A DNA stretch of 53,859 nucleotides, taken from the IMG/VR virus record IMGVR_UViG_3300036779_000164, positions 1-53,859 of that record. One strand, 5' to 3'. Below the pieces are notes generated by a model, which had not been told where the DNA came from, ran no database searches, and saw only the letters and a program-made list of their open reading frames with translations. The position numbers were made by a program, and so were the translations under genes. This DNA is from a virus. The number at the start of each line of letters is the position of its first letter. The stretch's first letter is position 1. Positions 19,890 to 36,915 of this stretch are shown here, piece by piece.

Positions 19890-19973
19890 TGGTGGAGAAG
19901 GCAGGATTCGAACCTGCGTAGACGAATCGGCGGATTTACAGTCCGCTGCTTTTGACCACTCAGCCACTTCTCC
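19890..19973 (-). tRNA. tRNA-Tyr: tRNA-Tyr (anticodon GTA), type II with long variable arm, CCA encoded
   Basis: Minus strand: GGAGAAGTGGCTGAGTGGTCAAAAGCAGCGGACTGTAAATCCGCCGATTCGTCTACGCAGGTTCGAATCCTGCCTTCTCCACCA. Acceptor GGAGAAG/CTTCTCC, anticodon loop CTGTAAA, T-loop GGTTCGAATCC. Confidence 0.93.
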
Positions 19974-20925: not shown

Positions 20926-21240
20926 ATGGATGATTTTAAGAGAATAAAATCTTTTGTTGAAGAAGGAATTTGTTCAACTGAATCTATTCTACATTTCTAT
21001 AATGAAATGAATAAAGTTGTAAATTGTTTTGAAAATATAAACAATCATCAAACTCCTATTCTTTTTTTGTTAGATGATTTGCTTATATATTTTCCAAATT
21101 TTCAAATAAGCGTCATGGATAATTATATGCGAAATAGAGGATTTAAAAAATTCCATGATGATTCAAAAGTATTTTATAAACTTTCTGATATTCTAGCTTG
21201 CTTTGATTTTATGTTTAAATCATCTGGTATCTCTAAATGA
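20926..21240 (+). CDS. Hypothetical protein
   Basis: 104-aa ORF. Its stop overlaps the start of the primase gene (ATGA). Confidence 0.5.
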   Translation: MDDFKRIKSFVEEGICSTESILHFYNEMNKVVNCFENINNHQTPILFLLDDLLIYFPNFQISVMDNYMRNRGFKKFHDDSKVFYKLSDILACFDFMFKSSGISK

Positions 21241-23522
21241 TCAGATACGATTATTTTCAAAGTGTAAAACATGTTTTACCAATTGCTCAATTTCAAACAT
21301 TTGAAGATTTTAGTAGTAAATTTATTGAGTTTGAAGTTATCGAAACAAAAAACGAACGTAATAAGTGTTTTTCATTTACACAATATTTTCCAGGTCTTAC
21401 TCGTGGAAAAGACAATATAGAATTTATAACTGGATTTGTTTTTGATTTTGATAATAAGGATTGTGAACCAATTAATCCCAAAGACATATTTGCAAAACTT
21501 GAAAATTTATCGATTGCTTATTTATGGTACCACACTTTTTCTCATGCAAAAGATAATTTAAGATGGCGTTTAATAATTCCTTTTGGAAGATTTGTTAAAT
21601 CTGATGAATGGGATGATATATATGATAGAGGATTAAATCTTATAGGAAATCCTCCAGGAATCGATCCAGTATGCCGTAAAACAGCACAAATCTATTTCTA
21701 CCCTTATCAACCTAGCCGACCCAATTCTCTGTTTATTGCAGAAAGTTTTAAAGGACATTTATTAGATCCAAATGATCTTGATAAACTTGAAATCAAAAAA
21801 CAAGAGATTATTACAATTCCAATCGAACCGTCGACTTATCCTAAACTTGGAAAAAAGCCGCTAGATGAGTTTGATAAAATAAAGGAAGCTTTAACCTATA
21901 TATCTCCAGATGTTGAATATTTAGAATGGGTTAAAGTTGGTATGGCTCTTAAAAGTGAGCTTGGAGAAGCAGGCGTTGATATATGGGATAACTGGTCGAA
22001 AAATGGTTTGAAATATGGTGGAAGAAAGGAAATCTTATATCGCTGGGCAACGTTTAATAGCCAAGGAGTAAATATCGGAAGTTTATATGCTCTTGCAAAA
22101 GAGAGAGGTTATAAGATTCCGAATCATTTAGCTGAAACCAAAACTCTCATTAAAACAACATATATTGATAAAGACATTTCCTTATATACAGAACCTGAAG
22201 AAGATGTCATTGATGCAGCGTTAAGCAAAATACAGCCTTTTATTTGTAGGGACATGTTTGATATCCCCGATAAAGTCTTAAAAGAACTTTATGAATGGAT
22301 TAATCAAACATCTTTTATTATCCAACCTATTTATTCAATTGCAACTGCCATATCAATTTTCGCTTTTTTGAAAAGAGATATAATTTGTAGTCCCACAAAT
22401 ATCAAAACAAATCTTTATATACTATCTATGGGTCCGAGTCGATCAGGAAAGAATAATGGCTTGGCGCGTATTTATCAAATTATGCAGAAATTAAAACTTG
22501 AGAATTTCGTAGTTTCAGGAATTGGTTCTCATCAAGGCCTTTTAAGACAAATGAATGAAAATAAAGGAGCTATCTTCATCACAAATGATGAAATCTCTTA
22601 TATGCTTGGTAATGTGCAAAATAAACAAGCAAGTTCACATGAAAAAAACATTGAACAAAAGTTATTATCTCTATATAATTGTAAATTTCAAACTACAGAT
22701 GCGATAAAAGGTGAAAAAATGGAAAAGATTTCTGATCCATTTCTTCATGTTTACAGCACCACAACTGAGCAAATTGTTAATATCTTAAAACCTCATTCAG
22801 CTACTTCAGGCTTATTGGCGCGTTTTTTAATTTTCCAAGTCACACCAGGAATGCCTTACATTGAAAATATTAATCCTTATGATGAAATACCTGCATCATT
22901 GCTTGAAGGACTCGGCGAAATACAAAAAGATTCCTTTAGAAAAGCGATATTTGAAGAAGAAGCGGCTCAATGGTTTAAGCAATTTCGAGAAAAAATCAGA
23001 CCGATTCAACAATTATTGAATAAAGAAAATACCCGAGTAGATTCACTTTTTGGCAATTTATCTGAACAAGCAACAAAATTATCTTTACTTACAACACCTT
23101 TTAAAAATCATATTCCTTTTAGTCATAACTCAAAAAATACTGTAGAGAAATGGCCATTTATACGGCTTGAAGATATTCAATGGGGAGTTGCAGTTGCTTT
23201 TCATTGCTTGAAGAATAACATTCAAATAGCTGCTCAATTTTCAGATAACTCACATGAAAAAGTCATTAAAAAGATAAAAGAGATGCTTAAAGCTAAAACA
23301 AAAGAAGGAAATTGGATTTCTAAATCTGATCTTTATAAGGCTATTAATTGCGAAGCAGGTCTATATGCTTTTGAGGGATATTTAAAGCTACTTTATGACG
23401 GAGGAGAAATTGATATTGAGAAAAATCAAAGAGCAAGAGGATTTAAAGTAAGATGGATCTCATCAAAAATAAGAAAAGAAATGGAAAAAAATAATGCGTT
23501 TGCTAAAGAAATAAAATTATAG
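21237..23522 (+). CDS. Bifunctional primase/helicase (prim-pol-like N-domain, PriCT-2-like domain, DUF3987/D5-like P-loop domain)
   Basis: FVFDFDNKD (acidic catalytic motif). EYLEWVKVGMALKSELGEAGVDIWDNWSK...GSLYALAKERGY (PriCT-like). Walker A SMGPSRSGKNNG and Walker B-like FITNDE. Confidence 0.8.
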   Translation: MIRYDYFQSVKHVLPIAQFQTFEDFSSKFIEFEVIETKNERNKCFSFTQYFPGLTRGKDNIEFITGFVFDFDNKDCEPINPKDIFAKLENLSIAYLWYHTFSHAKDNLRWRLIIPFGRFVKSDEWDDIYDRGLNLIGNPPGIDPVCRKTAQIYFYPYQPSRPNSLFIAESFKGHLLDPNDLDKLEIKKQEIITIPIEPSTYPKLGKKPLDEFDKIKEALTYISPDVEYLEWVKVGMALKSELGEAGVDIWDNWSKNGLKYGGRKEILYRWATFNSQGVNIGSLYALAKERGYKIPNHLAETKTLIKTTYIDKDISLYTEPEEDVIDAALSKIQPFICRDMFDIPDKVLKELYEWINQTSFIIQPIYSIATAISIFAFLKRDIICSPTNIKTNLYILSMGPSRSGKNNGLARIYQIMQKLKLENFVVSGIGSHQGLLRQMNENKGAIFITNDEISYMLGNVQNKQASSHEKNIEQKLLSLYNCKFQTTDAIKGEKMEKISDPFLHVYSTTTEQIVNILKPHSATSGLLARFLIFQVTPGMPYIENINPYDEIPASLLEGLGEIQKDSFRKAIFEEEAAQWFKQFREKIRPIQQLLNKENTRVDSLFGNLSEQATKLSLLTTPFKNHIPFSHNSKNTVEKWPFIRLEDIQWGVAVAFHCLKNNIQIAAQFSDNSHEKVIKKIKEMLKAKTKEGNWISKSDLYKAINCEAGLYAFEGYLKLLYDGGEIDIEKNQRARGFKVRWISSKIRKEMEKNNAFAKEIKL

Positions 23523-30953: not shown

Positions 30954-30982
30954 ACCTTACTAAAAAAACAAACTTAAGTCAA
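30954..30982 (-). promoter_or_regulatory. Early promoter, box copy 1 (TTGACTTAAGTTTGT, N17 spacing, TAAGGT)
   Basis: Minus strand: -35 TTGACT (30977-30982), 17-nt spacer, -10 TAAGGT (30954-30959). The 15-nt box is shared with 33119-33133 and 36887-36901. Confidence 0.65.
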
Positions 30983-32846: not shown

Positions 32847-33059
32847 TTATAGATATTGTCGTATATATTGCTGTGGCATATCAATTTTATGAGTTAATGC
32901 ATCAATCTTCTCATTTAACATTTTGTCTAGATCTTTGATAAACTGTTCTAATTGAACAATTTTGTTAGATAAATCATCTATTTTTGTATAGAGCTCATTT
33001 ATATGTTCCAGATTACCTTGTGCGATGAATCTGAGACCAGTGCTATCGTTATTAACCAT
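32847..33059 (-). CDS. Small coiled-coil early protein; first gene of the leftward arm
   Basis: AAAGGAGAAAA RBS. 70 aa with heptad-like Leu/Ile spacing. Confidence 0.55.
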   Translation of the reverse strand: MVNNDSTGLRFIAQGNLEHINELYTKIDDLSNKIVQLEQFIKDLDKMLNEKIDALTHKIDMPQQYIRQYL

Positions 33060-33104
33060 TAGTTTTCTCCTTTTTAATGCTAAGTCCCTATGACTTATAG
33101 GTTG

Positions 33105-33133
33105 ATCCTATCAAAAGGACAAACTTAAGTCAA
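33105..33133 (-). promoter_or_regulatory. Early promoter, box copy 2 (TTGACTTAAGTTTGT, N17 spacing, TAGGAT)
   Basis: Minus strand: -35 TTGACT (33128-33133), 17-nt spacer, -10 TAGGAT (33105-33110), about 45 nt upstream of ATG 33059. Confidence 0.65.
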
Positions 33134-33372
33134 ACTTATTTTTATTAAAATAGGAGAAGATTCGGCTAAGTTATTAAAATGATTAGGATAAAAGTTGGAG
33201 AAAAGTAAAATAAAGTGGAGATGAAGGAGATTGATTTAGGAAGAAGAAAGCACGGAAAAAAGAGATTGTTCCACAGGAAAGAAGAGAGAGAGTACCACAA
33301 ATATGCTTATTATCTGAATGAATAGAAGAGAAGAGGTAGCAGAAAAGTGTATCAAAACAACAGAGTAAACGC

Positions 33373-33426
33373 GAGAGATATGATATGGATAAAGCTAGGG
33401 AAGCGATAATGAGAATCATATCTCTC
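33373..33426. repeat. Perfect 12-bp inverted repeat with a 30-nt spacer in the ORF-free region
   Basis: GAGAGATATGAT (33373-33384) and ATCATATCTCTC (33415-33426). Confidence 0.85.
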
Positions 33427-33717
33427 ACACGTTTAATAACAGAAGAAAAATTAACCTACAAGAGTGAAAATAAATTTAAGCAAAAATTCGTTAGACTGTT
33501 TATATATGTAAATTCATATAAGTTAGAGATGATCTGCATAAATCCTACTTTGATAATCTTATCTTAATTAAAAGATAAAGGCCTTGTTAAAATAAGCTCT
33601 TTTCGTAAAATACGTAATTTACTAAGAGGAATAATTGTGGAAACATTGTCTAAGTGGAGCGAAGATTATTGACGCTTTTTAGGAGTCTAAGCGCCACACA
33701 AGATTGCGGGTTTAGTC

Positions 33718-34016
33718 GGGTGTTCGTTGTTAACGTAGTAGTGTTCGTAGATGACGAACCCGGACAAACTTTTTTTCTTATAAGTCTTATAAAATATATA
33801 TATATATAATAAAAAAAAATATAAAGTGTTCGTAGTAGTAAGTACAGAGTGAGATAAGCTATTGTTGACTTATTGGAATGAGATTTTGAGAGAAATTTGA
33901 CTAAATCGCACTGGCGACGAACATACAAACATAAATTGCCAAAATTTGTTGTTCATCTGCAAGGGTTTTGTTAAAAACTGTTCGAGAAGGCAAAAATAAC
34001 GAACTACTACGAACCC
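33718..34016. repeat. Iteron-like GTTCG(T/A) repeats in both orientations flanking a pure A/T tract
   Basis: TGTTCGTTG 33721; CGTAGTAGTGTTCGTAGATGACGAAC 33734-33759; GTGTTCGTAGTAGTA 33826-33840; CGACGAACAT 33915; CTGTTCGAG 33978; ACGAACTACTACGAACCC 33999-34016. An uninterrupted A/T run spans ~33783-33825 and includes (TA)n. Confidence 0.75.
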
Positions 34017-34143
34017 AAGCACTGTGGCTAAACTTTGGCCACAAAGTGAAGTTTAGCATGAATTTTAGGAATGTCAAGAGCTATTTTTGATATTTTTATA
34101 GCGTCTTTAGCGAAATCCGCCAAAATGAGACTGCTCAAACGAT

Positions 34144-34172
34144 ATCTTAAAATTTTTGTGACCTTTTTGCAA
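34144..34172 (-). promoter_or_regulatory. Orphan promoter-like element pointing into the ORF-free region
   Basis: Minus strand: TTGCAA (34167-34172), N17, TAAGAT (34144-34149). No credible ORF lies downstream of it. Confidence 0.35.
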
Positions 34173-34323
34173 CAGAAAAATGCATTATTTTTCATTTTTT
34201 TTAATTATTTTTAAAAATAATTTATTTTAGAGTTAACAAATTGATACCACAAATTATATATAAACAATAAAATCTAATACAGAAAAGACTTTCAAACTTT
34301 TTGCTATAATATATTTACTATTA

Positions 34324-34611
34324 TCACTCGCTGATGACGCTCAGAGGTGCTGTCTCTTCAGGATCCTGCAAATACTCAACCAAAGATTGCTTTACCGTCT
34401 GTGCATCAAGGCTATCATAGAAGCCCATTGTGGTGCTATCCTTCTCATACTGAAACGCAAAGGGCTCAACGTCAGTCACCACATCAGTATCAATAATCTT
34501 ACTATCTTCATTGAAGAAGATAACCATGCAGCCAGGGTATGGAACATGAAGGGCTTTAAGATGACCCTTGTCTATTAGGAACTGTATAAAGTCTAAGCTA
34601 TGATCTGGCAT
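34324..34611 (-). CDS. Hypothetical protein downstream of the terS-like gene
   Basis: 95-aa ORF, overlaps 34598..35158 by 14 nt. GC-richer composition, like the terminase genes. Confidence 0.55.
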   Translation of the reverse strand: MPDHSLDFIQFLIDKGHLKALHVPYPGCMVIFFNEDSKIIDTDVVTDVEPFAFQYEKDSTTMGFYDSLDAQTVKQSLVEYLQDPEETAPLSVISE

Positions 34612-35158
34612 TGTTTATCTCCTGTATGATTGGATCATCTGAATCAATCGGTTGTATCTCTGGCGCAACATCTGCTTCCATAACTGGCAGATCCACAGTG
34701 GGCTCATCCCCCTTTTCCAATTCGATTTTCTGGGATTCAATATCAGAGGAAATTTCTGAAGGGGGGGGAGGCGAATTTATAAGATGGGACTCTATTTCTA
34801 TGGCTTCGCCTAAAATTGTGTTCTTCTTTGCTTGCATCATCGCATCATACGACAACACCATCTTCATCAAATCATCCATGCTCATATTCCCAATTTCCGG
34901 ACCCTGGGTAGTTATTTGGAATTTCTGGGGGGCTTTCTCTATCACATAGTCTAACAATAGCGCCATGGCCCGCATATCGCCTTCTAGGGCCTTCGTCATC
35001 AAAACCCCTGTTAACGATTCCCAATTATCCTGAGCTGCCTCAACTAATTGCAGCGCAAGATCATTCTTGGCATACATCAGTTGTTTGAACACGTTGGTTT
35101 TTTTCAGGGTAACAGTAGGACGTCTGCCTCGTTTTGACGCACTTACGATTTCATTCAT
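34598..35158 (-). CDS. terS: Terminase small subunit-like protein
   Basis: N-terminal basic KRGRRPT segment followed by ALEGDMRAMALLLDYV, the pattern seen in many phage TerS families. Acidic, Pro-rich C-tail. Adjacent to terL but divergently transcribed. Confidence 0.5.
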   Translation of the reverse strand: MNEIVSASKRGRRPTVTLKKTNVFKQLMYAKNDLALQLVEAAQDNWESLTGVLMTKALEGDMRAMALLLDYVIEKAPQKFQITTQGPEIGNMSMDDLMKMVLSYDAMMQAKKNTILGEAIEIESHLINSPPPPSEISSDIESQKIELEKGDEPTVDLPVMEADVAPEIQPIDSDDPIIQEINNARS

Positions 35159-35256: not shown

Positions 35257-36882
35257 ATGTCAGATATTGATTACACAGGTATACTCAACGAAATGGAAGA
35301 ATCACAACGTGAGACTTTCATGGCGCAAGTATTCAGTAAGATCAAGGATATCAAACGCTGTGAGATTTCTTACTATGACTTTGCCAAGCAAGCATGGCCA
35401 CAGATTGAAGGACAAGAGTTTAGGGATAACTGGCATATTGGAGCGATCAGTGAACATTTAGAGGCTTGCTCCAAGCGTCAGATCAAGAAGCTACTGATCA
35501 ACATTCCTCCCCGCTTTATGAAGAGCACGCTTGTAGGGGTCATGTGGCCTGCATGGACGTGGATCAACATTCCTCATGAGAAATTTCTTTATGCTTCCCA
35601 TGCAGCCTCTCTCTCATTTAGAGACTCTGTTAATTGCAGAAGATTGATTGCATCTCCGTGGTACCAAGAAAGATGGGGGAATAAATTTTCTCTAACAGGC
35701 GATCAAAATACCAAGGGTAGATTTAACAACACTGCTGGAGGGTACCGTATTGCCTCGAGCGTTGAGTCATCCTTAACGGGTGAAGGTGGATCGATCAGGG
35801 TGTTGGATGACCCTAATAACACCAACCAGATCTCTGATTTGATTTTAGACAATACGATTTTCTGGTTAACTTCCACTTGGTTTACGCGTAAGAACGATCC
35901 GGCAAATGACATCCTGGTTATTATCCAGCAAAGGATGAACGAGAAGGATGTCTCGGGTTACATCATCGAGCATGACACAAATGATGAATGGGTTAAACTT
36001 ATTCTACCTATGGAATATGAGGTACCGAGGAAAAGCAAGACTGTGGTACTCCCTTCTACCGAAGGTAAGAAATGGGAAGATCCCCGTATCTTTGAGGGCG
36101 AACTTCTATGGCCGAGCTTCTGGGATGAAGATAAGGTTGCTGAGGGTAAGCGAGAACTCGGTAATGAGTATGCAGTTGCCGGACAGTATCAGCAAAGACC
36201 AGCTCCAATTGGTGGCGGTTTTATCAAGAAGGATTGGTTTAAGATCTACAAGGAAGTTCGTCCTCCCCATCTGGATTATGTGATTCAATCTTGGGATACG
36301 GCTTTCTCGATTAAGGATTCAAGTGATTATTCAGCCTGTGTAACAATGGGAGTATTTTATGATCACATGAAGATTCCTAATTTAATCTTGTTGAATGCTT
36401 GGCGAGGGAGAGTTGATTATCCAGATCTGCGGAAACTAGCTCAGGAGTTTTACAGGGATTATCGCAGCAAAGGTTTGGGATCAGTTGAGGCTGATGGCCA
36501 GCATAGACCTCACATGGTTTTAATTGAGGATAAGGGATCAGGCATGTCTCTGGTGCAAGACTTTAGGAAAGCGGGAGTTCCGGTGATCGGATTTGATCCC
36601 CGCAAACATGGGGATAAGATCACTCGTGTACAAAAGGTATCACATCTAATACAAGCTGGCAGGGTTTGGGTTGCAGCTATTCCTCCAAGCTATAAGAGCT
36701 TGAGACAATCAGCCCAGTTGCTTGTGGAATGTTGCACGATGTTTCCTGCGGGGAAATCTAGGGATATTGTGGATGCGATGACACAGATTCTCATTCGCTT
36801 GAATTTGAGTGGTTGGATTAATAGTCCTTATGATGAAGACAGCGGTGATACATCGCTTAGAATGAAGAAGATATTTTACTAA
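35257..36882 (+). CDS. terL: Terminase large subunit
   Basis: Walker A-like LINIPPRFMKST, Walker B-like IRVLDDP. C-terminal nuclease region IQSWDTAFSIKDSSDYSACVTMGV ... LIEDKGSG ... DIVDAMTQ, typical of the Terminase_6/TIGR01630 type. Confidence 0.92.
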   Translation: MSDIDYTGILNEMEESQRETFMAQVFSKIKDIKRCEISYYDFAKQAWPQIEGQEFRDNWHIGAISEHLEACSKRQIKKLLINIPPRFMKSTLVGVMWPAWTWINIPHEKFLYASHAASLSFRDSVNCRRLIASPWYQERWGNKFSLTGDQNTKGRFNNTAGGYRIASSVESSLTGEGGSIRVLDDPNNTNQISDLILDNTIFWLTSTWFTRKNDPANDILVIIQQRMNEKDVSGYIIEHDTNDEWVKLILPMEYEVPRKSKTVVLPSTEGKKWEDPRIFEGELLWPSFWDEDKVAEGKRELGNEYAVAGQYQQRPAPIGGGFIKKDWFKIYKEVRPPHLDYVIQSWDTAFSIKDSSDYSACVTMGVFYDHMKIPNLILLNAWRGRVDYPDLRKLAQEFYRDYRSKGLGSVEADGQHRPHMVLIEDKGSGMSLVQDFRKAGVPVIGFDPRKHGDKITRVQKVSHLIQAGRVWVAAIPPSYKSLRQSAQLLVECCTMFPAGKSRDIVDAMTQILIRLNLSGWINSPYDEDSGDTSLRMKKIFY

Positions 36883-36886
36883 TCAA

Positions 36887-36915
36887 TTGATTTAAGTTTG
36901 TCCATGAGATAAGTT
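36887..36915 (+). promoter_or_regulatory. Early promoter, box copy 3 (TTGATTTAAGTTTGT, N17 spacing, TAAGTT)
   Basis: -35 TTGATT (36887-36892), 17-nt spacer, -10 TAAGTT (36910-36915). ATG 36923 is only 7 nt downstream, so the mRNA may be leaderless or nearly so. Confidence 0.6.

Follow-up and report, generated by a model that had tools for sequence, protein, structure and literature searches.

The alpha protein of phage P4 carries a primase, a helicase and a C-terminal winged-helix origin-binding domain in one polypeptide, and the P4 origin consists of short direct and inverted repeats located away from the gene, with a second cis site, crr. Short repeats also occur at packaging sites: at P1 pac, hexamer repeats flank the cut, and lambda cosB holds repeated terminase-binding sites. 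In SaPIs, the origins are built from short iterons that flank an AT-rich region and point in opposite directions (PMC9371898). Their reader is a self-loading Rep helicase, which acts through its winged helix and in some SaPIs is fused to a primase (PMC9371898).

Here we describe a locus with a related layout in the window, that is, the whole stretch of 53,859 nucleotides that was analysed. An earlier note on this DNA had suggested a replication origin in the largest gene-free gap. The conservation test named there separates the two halves of that gap: the right half is conserved in close relatives and the left half is not. The comparative evidence favours the origin reading for the right half, 33718-34016, while the left half is excluded from it. 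Judged from sequence comparison, this core is in our opinion probably, if far from certainly, the replication origin of the phage.

The gene-free gap and its repeat core

The window represents a complete, circular genome of 53.7 kb from a temperate phage; the circular assembly has a 127-bp overlap, which is uninformative on packaging termini. Positions 33060-34323 are the longest ORF-poor stretch of the genome and the largest gap separating credible genes, and 33929-34323 is the largest stretch without any ORF of at least 60 aa. The long non-coding stretch claimed earlier is thus borne out: the ORFs in 33060-34323 are all without family support or conservation. Every sequence feature listed in the earlier note is present, most of them beyond chance expectation. 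All three plus-strand frames of the gap are stop-rich, its small ORFs are not conserved, and its 60-aa ORF, the sole small ORF tested, has no match in Pfam.

A blastn search of the gap against INPHARED phages gave no match. The TerL of the closest cultured relative is 45% identical, and TerL-based scans of genome and metagenome collections found no closer relatives than those already compared, and no host. By sequence comparison, the gap is made up of a conserved core in its right half (33718-34016) and a non-conserved left half (33134-33700). The core contains the following features.

33722-33761, plus strand: left iteron cluster, in a block 79% identical to the relative L010 over 128 bp
33722-33731, plus strand: left-cluster iteron GTTCGTTGTT
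33734-33742, plus strand: left-cluster partial iteron CGTAGTAGT
33743-33752, plus strand: left-cluster iteron GTTCGTAGAT
33751-33759, minus strand: left-cluster inverted copy GTTCGTCAT
33765-33825, no strand: A/T-rich tract with (TA)n, the proposed DNA-unwinding element
33828-33839, plus strand: iteron GTTCGTAGTAGT, directly 3' of the A/T tract
33840-33997, no strand: spacer, about 160 bp, that includes two degenerate iteron-like copies and TTGAC-containing motifs
33915-33922, minus strand: degenerate spacer copy GTTCGTCG
33980-33986, plus strand: degenerate spacer copy GTTCGAG
33998-34014, minus strand: right inverted iteron pair GTTCGTAGTAGTTCGTT, two TTCGT cores 10 bp apart

The core repeat is (G)TTCGTAGTA, about 10 bp long, with copies 9-11 bp apart. 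At least seven GTTCG-type repeats in both orientations had been reported before; we count eight copies with a TTCG core, from 33722 to 34014. The density of TTCGT, 7 per 320 bp, is the maximum of the genome (mean 0.56, sd 0.85). The iteron GTTCGTAGTAGT at 33828-33839 and its exact complement at 34003-34014, both pointed out earlier, are present, and the right iteron pair is 95% identical to L010 over 21 bp.

Between the repeats, 33778-33825 is at least 95% A/T. The run of about 40 bp noted before corresponds to 33787-33825, 39 bp of pure A/T and the longest such run in the genome. In the window, the core tract is the only A/T tract in non-coding DNA that has flanking repeated G/C-containing 8-mers. 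The layout is thus left repeats, the A/T-(TA)n tract, one copy, about 160 bp and then inverted copies. The arrays are opposed across 60 bp of A/T-(TA)n and the 160-bp spacer, with at least two copies per side: plus-strand copies are at 33722, 33743 and 33828, and minus-strand copies at 33915, 33998 and 34003.

There is no second repeat cluster in the window. DnaA boxes in its gap are no better than one mismatch, and the two one-mismatch matches are near chance expectation. GC skew, a check proposed in the earlier note, has its cumulative minimum at about 33 kb; this minimum tracks a switch in gene orientation and is therefore confounded, so it is not used here as evidence for an origin.

The variable left half and the promoter-like sites

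Outside the core, the region has a different character, with the following features.

33105-33133, minus strand: promoter-like TTGACT-17-(TG)TAGGAT from the promoter scan, marking the left boundary of the region
33180-33420, plus strand: purine-rich tract, lineage-specific and outside the conserved element
33368-33431, no strand: long hairpin, a perfect 12-bp stem extended by AAACG/CGTTT, with a 30-nt loop
34050-34077, minus strand: promoter-like TTGACA-16-(TG)CTAAACT, the best match of the region (10/12), with an extended -10
34144-34172, minus strand: TTGCAA-N17-TAAGAT of the earlier note, a weak consensus match

The left half has no sequence conservation in the relatives, even in L010. Going by these alignments, it lies outside the proposed origin, as a variable slot that separates it from the early-left promoter (33105-33133). 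A 45-aa gene occupies this slot in some relatives: a plus-strand ORF of this length is common to L010 and L014 (E 3e-6). No homologue of it was found in the window or in L013, and the likeness of the 60-aa ORF of the window (33385-33567) to it is not significant.

As described earlier, the plus strand is purine-rich at 33180-33420; its 73.4% purine is the maximum among all 241-bp windows of the genome (mean 0.516, sd 0.062). As a compositional feature the tract is not conserved, as no comparable tract was found in the relatives. The idea that it binds Hfq through (ARN)n repeats was rejected, since there is no (ARN)n enrichment. The perfect 12-bp inverted repeat with a 30-nt spacer was also confirmed (33373-33384 and 33415-33426), and the hairpin built on it overlaps the start of the unsupported 60-aa ORF. 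The gap has two perfect 12-bp inverted repeats where 0.077 would be expected, and a count of two is reached in 1.6% of Markov resamples. Long hairpins, perfect or near-perfect but unrelated, are present in L010 and L014 in comparable places adjoining a small plus-strand ORF.

The site at 33105-33133 is a putative promoter for the early operon that runs leftward from 33059. The block around this site is conserved in L010 (85.7% over 42 bp), and the motif TTGACTTAAGTTT recurs at 30970-30982 on the minus strand and, with one mismatch, at 36887-36899 on the plus strand. On the other flank, the -35 and -10 of the site at 34077-34050 are common to L010 at 18-nt spacing, from reading the sequences, and are not recognisable in L013 or L014. 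Leftward transcription from this site into the iteron and A/T element might contribute to transcriptional activation of the origin. The orphan promoter proposed before, at 34144-34172, exists as a sequence; however, it matches the consensus at 8/12 positions by our own count, is absent from the promoter-scan list and has no counterpart in L010 by eye. Judged on these matches, it is probably non-functional.

Related elements and alternative functions

The same motif and layout are found in the syntenic gap of four independent relatives: L010, L013 and L014, whose TerL is 89%, 70% and 60% identical to that of the window, and L130, whose primase is 65% identical. In these four the gap outside the core is unalignable. 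The (TA)n tract lies between the repeats at the same position in every related element examined, and a spacer of about 70-160 bp is present in all relatives. A single copy in the same orientation directly follows the A/T tract in L010, L013, L132, L017, L136 and L139. Inverted arrays on the right side are shared by L010 and L013; L132 and L017 also have them, built from another motif.

Further away, in L017, L132 and L134 (TerL 58%, primase 48% identical), the architecture is kept and the repeat is GTTTAGCCTG / CAGGCTAAAC. In more distant relatives that encode the primase-helicase family of the window, the layout is retained and the repeats have other sequences. The element adjoins a DUF5681/TerS-like gene in two of three lineages, the window type and the L136 type. 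A 17-mer scan of viral contigs also returned L015 and L016, which have single isolated matches without a cluster and were judged to be chance. L140 and L141 (primase 46-49%) were left out, as the retrieved stretch ends before the expected position of the element.

A natural change of the repeat is seen between L136 and L139, whose primase is 29% identical to that of the window and where this architecture is located 3 kb ahead of the primase gene, on its upstream side. The array orientation relative to the A/T tract in L136 is, in our reading, opposite to that of the window. In both genomes a perfect DnaA box, TTATCCACA, adjoins the first repeat, and both have a separate Rep_3 origin with 22-bp tandem iterons flanked by perfect DnaA boxes. 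The flanks of the element are about 95% identical by eye between the two, but all of the approximately nine repeat copies have changed in concert, from AAGTATTCGTA to AATGTTACGTA. The DUF5681/TerS-like proteins of the pair are 99% identical (1 of 124 residues differs). Their primases are identical over residues 370-735 and diverge in the N-terminal/PriCT-2 part and at about 10 positions of the C-terminal domain. Other proteins differ as well (AAA_24 79%, Rep_3 86%), so the co-variation of repeat and primase is not exclusive; co-variation between repeat and primase specificity is based on few independent pairs. L136 and L139 form a natural switched pair for mapping which primase domain would read the repeats.

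On the right, the gap is followed by a putative small terminase gene and by the TerL gene.

34598-35158, minus strand: 186-aa DUF5681-like protein, candidate small terminase, with a weak DUF5681 match (E 1.2e-3)
35257-36882: TerL, with a Terminase_6C nuclease domain

The earlier note had placed the region next to terS/terL. A candidate TerS does adjoin it; however, this protein is DUF5681-like, divergent and transcribed in the opposite direction to TerL. Two homologues from a profile search, P0161 and P0162, pass the Pfam cut-off for DUF5681, and a homologue adjoins TerL in all relatives; gene position suggests that the protein is a small terminase. Its AlphaFold model is all-helical and of low confidence (pLDDT 56), too poor for a fold search. 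The protein has no sequence match in PDB and does not resemble the TerS annotated in Roseobacter phage CRP-901. Neither NCBIfam nor tblastn, run with P0162 against the phage collection, was informative.

If the element were a packaging site (pac or cos), the DUF5681-like small terminase would bind the repeats around a central cleavage region, where packaging would start. The neighbourhood fits this: the element is 300-600 bp from the DUF5681-like gene, which adjoins TerL, and the L136/L139 element is just upstream of a leftward string of genes (a 70-aa gene, DUF5681 ... TerL). The Terminase_6C domain of TerL is of a type associated with headful packaging, and P1 pac and lambda cosB also have short repeats flanking a central site near terminase genes. 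However, unlike at pac and cosB, repeats of the kind described here can change without a change in the TerS-like protein, and the element can lie far from the terminase: in L017, 4.5 kb and eight genes separate it from those for the TerS-like protein and TerL. The L136/L139 pair provides an indirect test, in which every repeat copy differs beside a nearly unchanged DUF5681 protein. Conversely, L014 keeps the motif with a TerS-like protein that is only 24% identical and without the basic N-terminus. Pac and cos sites are not known for long tracts of pure A/T with (TA)n or for a DnaA box like the one beside the array of L136 and L139, and the small-terminase role of DUF5681 is suggested only by gene position. 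The cos/pac reading of the earlier note is thus possible but disfavoured, being weakened by the distance in L017 and by the repeat switch, and we regard it as unlikely. Still less probable is that the repeats are operators through which a phage regulator controls the early-left (33105-33133) and 34077-34050 promoters, for instance in a lysis-lysogeny switch. The leftward early operon always starts downstream of the element, promoter-like sites are found on both flanks, and the early-left operon of the relatives encodes several small HTH proteins. No candidate regulator that co-varies with the repeats was found. In the window the repeats are 600-900 bp from the early promoter. They are non-palindromic, at least eight in number, helically phased and flank a 39-bp pure A/T run, a layout typical of origins and not of operators; the DnaA box in L136 and L139 also speaks against transcriptional control.

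The proposal of a long non-coding transcript, structured or regulatory and made either as a purine-rich plus-strand RNA or as a leftward RNA from 34077-34050, perhaps linked to Hfq, fares worst and appears very improbable. The plus strand has a composition resembling the sense strand of this genome at 33134-33460, 33368-33431 forms a strong hairpin, the fold of the core beats that of shuffled sequences on either strand (z about -3.8 to -3.9), and the phage encodes an Hfq homologue (16378-16665). However, Rfam 15, a check named in the earlier note, gives no match for the region at the gathering score or even at E<=10, a scan that returned two hits at chance level; the only Rfam 15 match of the window is a tRNA-Tyr at 19893-19973. 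The left half has no fold advantage over shuffles (z -0.66) and is not conserved in any relative. In the core, the fold signal comes from the inverted repeats: the RNAalifold consensus is -0.87 kcal/mol, with no covariation or compensatory change, and the repeats of L013 have another order and orientation than those of the window, so that no single RNA structure could fit both. In addition, (ARN)n content is not enriched and there is no canonical terminator. With no Rfam match, no conserved fold and a left half that is unstructured and unconserved, the transcript idea is not upheld.

A candidate initiator and the known systems

For a replication origin, the reading that we prefer, the window encodes a candidate protein to read the repeats, melt the origin and load the helicase.

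21237-23522, plus strand: primase-helicase, 761 aa, with AEP primase, PriCT-2, AAA+ ATPase and C-terminal winged helix

The Pfam matches of this protein are PriCT_2 and DUF3987. Its AlphaFold model (pLDDT 80.7) has a helix-helix-helix-beta-hairpin at 672-740 that is winged-helix-like, and Foldseek matches the model to MCM, ORC/Cdc6 and RuvB AAA+ proteins and to AEP PrimPols. No sequence similarity to solved Rep structures was detected. From this model, the phage is predicted to encode an initiator-helicase with a winged-helix DNA-binding domain.

In the family of the window, the last 60 residues of the primase are 31-59% identical inside the GTTCGTAG class, and 23-26% identical between this class and four primases sharing another C-terminal sequence. 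In comparison, residues 641-700 are 60-73% identical across both C-terminal classes. By these alignments each iteron class has its own version of the C-terminal 60 residues, where carriage of the other repeat is confirmed for two of the four primases with the different C-terminus (P0128 and P0129).

By analogy with SaPI Rep/PriRep and P4 alpha, we infer a mechanism in which the 761-aa primase-helicase would bind the repeats via its C-terminal winged helix and possibly the PriCT-2 region. It would assemble on both sides of the A/T tract and then melt it, load itself as the replicative helicase and prime through the AEP domain.

More speculative, and on balance rather unlikely, is a wider reading in which the iteron, (TA)n, iteron cassette would be the general origin architecture of a broad, uncharacterised AEP-PriCT-2-AAA+-winged-helix family in phages and phage-plasmid-like elements, with its specificity re-programmed by concerted replacement of the repeats. 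The determinant might then lie at least partly in the variable AEP/PriCT-2 N-terminal part, and not in the C-terminal winged helix alone, because this is the most diverged segment of the primase in the L136/L139 switch. The same site might also be the start of packaging, because it is recurrently found beside the DUF5681 protein.

If the core is indeed the origin, it provides an origin and a candidate initiator for uncultured low-GC temperate phages without a characterised relative. Opposed arrays of repeats of about 10 bp around (TA)n would then be a signature for finding origins in elements with a PriCT-2/DUF3987 primase-helicase. Iteron origins with A/T-rich unwinding elements are textbook knowledge, so this would be no new kind of biology; what is new is the sequence version.

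The iteron plasmids of the Rep_3/RepA type (pPS10, R6K, F) have iterons and an A/T-rich unwinding element, often with DnaA boxes. However, their iterons are 17-22-bp direct tandem repeats beside rep, whereas the window has repeats of about 10 bp in opposed arrays, and no Rep_3 protein was found among the window proteins scanned. With P4 the window shares the combined primase, helicase and winged helix and the direct and inverted repeats distant from the gene; the end of the primase gene (23522) and the start of the element (33718) are about 10 kb apart. P4 differs in having crr as a second site and a different octamer, while the window is without a second repeat cluster. Further, alpha is of another primase/helicase family composition; the likeness to P4 is one of analogy.

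The SaPI origin is located immediately downstream of rep, unlike the element of the window with its 10-kb distance from the primase gene. The repeats of the window are also longer, about 10 bp against 5-6 bp in SaPIs, and an additional spacer of 160 bp sets one array apart from the A/T tract. In spite of these differences, opposed short repeats around a central A/T-rich region are found in both, and the primase-helicase of the window has the same order of primase, AAA+ and winged helix.

Genome context and features of the gap

The sequence is a complete circular phage genome with a 127-bp overlap common to both ends, and the phage is temperate. This overlap, an exact direct repeat at the termini (1-127 and 53733-53859), stems from assembly; it indicates that the genome measures 53,732 bp and is circular or circularly permuted. 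Over the two stretches fetched (~21.8 kb), a Logan contig from SRR11832737 has the identical sequence. No close cultured relative was found: in the phage collection, the best match to the large terminase (TerL) belongs to Roseobacter phage CRP-901 and shares 45% identity. The main landmarks are:

17170-18435, tyrosine integrase
19890-19973, tRNA-Tyr
21237-23522, primase-helicase of 761 aa (PriCT_2 and DUF3987), followed by AAA_24 and then a YqaJ/Cas4-like nuclease
ending at 33059 (-), long leftward operon of small genes
34324-35158 (-), two leftward genes
35257-36882, TerL, followed by portal and head genes

An Hfq homologue is encoded near the integrase (16378-16665, -; Pfam Hfq, 72 bits), and at the same position in four relatives (L129, L132, L140 and L141). 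A leftward gene pair (13788-16225, -), located between tail genes and integrase, may be a moron or defence cargo; it encodes a 525-aa P-loop NTPase with weak STAND/AAA matches together with an FkbM-type methyltransferase.

All the features that the earlier note described in the gap are present in the sequence. Between 33060 and 34323 no ORF has family support or conservation. The plus-strand segment 33180-33420 (241 bp) is 73.4% purine, the maximum of the genome, and the perfect 12-bp inverted repeat at 33373-33426 was confirmed; the 1.26-kb gap holds two such repeats versus 0.077 expected, and 1.6% of resamples reach two. The TTCGT core reaches a density of 7 in 320 bp, where the genome averages 0.56 (sd 0.85), and 33787-33825 is the longest pure A/T stretch in the genome. 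The proposed leftward promoter at 34144-34172 exists as sequence but its match is below threshold; positions 34077-34050 hold a promoter-like site, also leftward, that matches better.

Two further elements were observed. The motif TTGACTTAAGTTT, probably a phage-specific promoter or operator, is found at the starts of three transcription units, at 33121-33133 (-), 30970-30982 (-) and, with one mismatch and directly past the TerL stop, 36887-36899 (+); a similar copy follows TerL in the relative L010 (5499-5530). At 34194-34229, immediately downstream of a 95-aa gene, 36 bp of pure A/T make up the genome's second-longest such run, which contains a 12-bp palindrome (AATTATTTTTAA / TTAAAAATAATT). 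The run may serve in place of a terminator or as a bent-DNA site, and a comparison by eye with L010 showed no conservation.

Conservation among relatives

Relatives were found in metagenomes through TerL and primase homologues, and their contigs were fetched. A gene-free gap of 1-1.9 kb is seen at the same place in every relative with 60-89% TerL identity (L010/L011/L012, L013 and L014) as well as in L130 (primase 65%), bounded by the leftward early operon and by the leftward gene or genes diverging from TerL. Three blocks of the gap can be aligned: 42 bp around the early-left promoter (33109-33150), 128 bp at 33718-33840 with 79% identity to L010, and 21 bp at 34005-34025. The conserved core of the window is built as follows:

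33722 and 33743 (+), GTTCGT(A/T)G repeats
33751-33759 (-), one inverted repeat copy
33765-33825, A/T-(TA)n tract
33828 (+), single copy of GTTCGTAGTAGT
between the 33828 copy and 33998, spacer of ~160 bp with two degenerate repeat copies
33998-34014 (-), two overlapping inverted copies

The same motif, (G/A)TTCGTAGTA, is placed around a (TA)n tract in L010, L013, L014 and L130, often with another TTCGT at a distance of 9-11 bp; each element has between five and thirteen copies of the TTCG core. In the 1.3 Mb of loci fetched, clustering of the motif is limited to these syntenic gaps, with the exception of a weak cluster in L040 (three copies, all one-mismatch matches).

From 33150 to 33700 nothing aligns to the relatives, L010 included, and we treat the left half (33134-33700) as a variable slot outside the conserved element. 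In L010 and L014 it carries a homologous 45-aa plus-strand ORF with strong hairpins on both sides (L010:1569-1757 and L014:7921-8058, both +; consensus ...EAI..I..SI...L...L..V....S..G.FG[DE]*), uncalled as a gene. This ORF is absent from L013 and from the window, where nothing can be aligned to it; the window instead has its own hairpin and the purine-rich tract, which lacks a counterpart in relatives, a fold signal and coding support.

Repeat replacement and the candidate reader

The architecture is also found with other repeats. In L017, L132 and L134 (TerL 58%, primase 48%) the repeat is GTTTAGCCTG / CAGGCTAAAC, and the order is repeats, a 50-bp (TA)n tract, one repeat, a ~100-bp spacer and three or four inverted repeats. 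A general detector of A/T tracts flanked by repeated G/C-containing 8-mers picked only this element and one coding repeat in the window. It also detected elements of this type in L136 and L139, where the primases share only 29% identity with that of the window.

L136 and L139 are ~89% identical over most of their length. The flanks of their elements (L136:4840-5260 and L139:6548-6970) are near-identical and include a perfect DnaA box, TTATCCACA, which adjoins the first repeat, yet all of the roughly nine repeat copies have changed alike, AAGTATTCGTA versus AATGTTACGTA. This concerted replacement would be a natural specificity switch. The adjoining DUF5681 protein is 99% identical (1 of 124 residues differs), so it does not read the repeats; nor does the Rep_3 initiator, since it has a separate origin of its own in which DnaA boxes flank 22-bp tandem iterons. 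In the primase, residues 370-735 are 100% identical, but the AEP/PriCT-2 part is 66-84% identical and the last 50 residues contain about ten substitutions. On these sequence comparisons the primase is the best remaining candidate, although AAA_24 (79%) differs too, as do other proteins. These IMG/VR 'viral' contigs encode a Rep_3 initiator with a classical origin, a RepA_C protein, a primase-helicase, TerL and an MFS transporter (L136:14752-16000, L136:18734-19639, L139:17242-18500), and look like multi-replicon phage-plasmid-like elements.

In the primase family of the window, members of the GTTCGTAG class are 31-59% identical over the last 60 residues, versus 23-26% against four primases with another common C-terminal sequence; for two of these four the other repeat was confirmed. 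The 60 residues ahead of these are 60-73% identical throughout the family.

RNA, packaging and replication

The earlier note had offered an origin, a packaging site or a non-coding RNA. For the last we found no support. On either strand the core does give a more stable fold than shuffled sequence (z about -3.8 to -3.9), an effect of the inverted repeats as such; a consensus fold computed for four relatives yields next to no energy (-0.87 kcal/mol) and no compensatory change in the repeat 'pairs', and repeat order and orientation in L013 are unlike those of the window. The left half shows no such advantage over shuffles (z -0.66), and Rfam gave no match. The core is very unlikely to be an RNA.

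A packaging signal would be natural next to a small terminase gene, and the neighbouring 186-aa protein (34598-35158, -) is plausibly one because of its position by TerL. Its DUF5681 match is weak (E 1.2e-3), its family profile retrieves proteins above Pfam's DUF5681 threshold, and its homologues adjoin TerL in every relative; in L139 the DUF5681 gene and TerL are co-oriented, with an invertase and a transposase inserted in between. However, the repeats of L136 and L139 switch while DUF5681 does not, and L014 keeps the motif with a TerS-like protein that shares only 24% identity and is missing the basic N-terminus. Further, the L017 element adjoins the start of the leftward early operon, with eight rightward genes (4.5 kb) between it and the TerS-like gene and TerL. 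Packaging is thus an unlikely, minority reading.

The origin reading is the one favoured by these comparisons: the core, 33718-34016, is rather probably the replication origin of the phage, a new sequence of the known type in which iterons flank an A/T-rich unwinding element, and it would probably be served by the phage's own primase-helicase. No solved structure matches that protein by sequence. In its AlphaFold model (pLDDT 80.7) an AEP fold at the N-terminus is followed by a helical PriCT-2 region and an AAA+ module, and residues 672-740 form a C-terminal helix-helix-helix-beta-hairpin unit; the best Foldseek matches to the N-terminus are the cyanophage S-2L and ASFV PrimPols, and those to the C-terminal half are MCM subunits, ORC/Cdc6 and RuvB. 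In SaPIs the Rep helicase, primase-fused in some islands, loads itself and uses its C-terminal winged helix to read short iterons, which flank an AT-rich region and are oppositely oriented on its two sides (PMC9371898). The domain order of the window's primase-helicase fits this description of SaPI replication.
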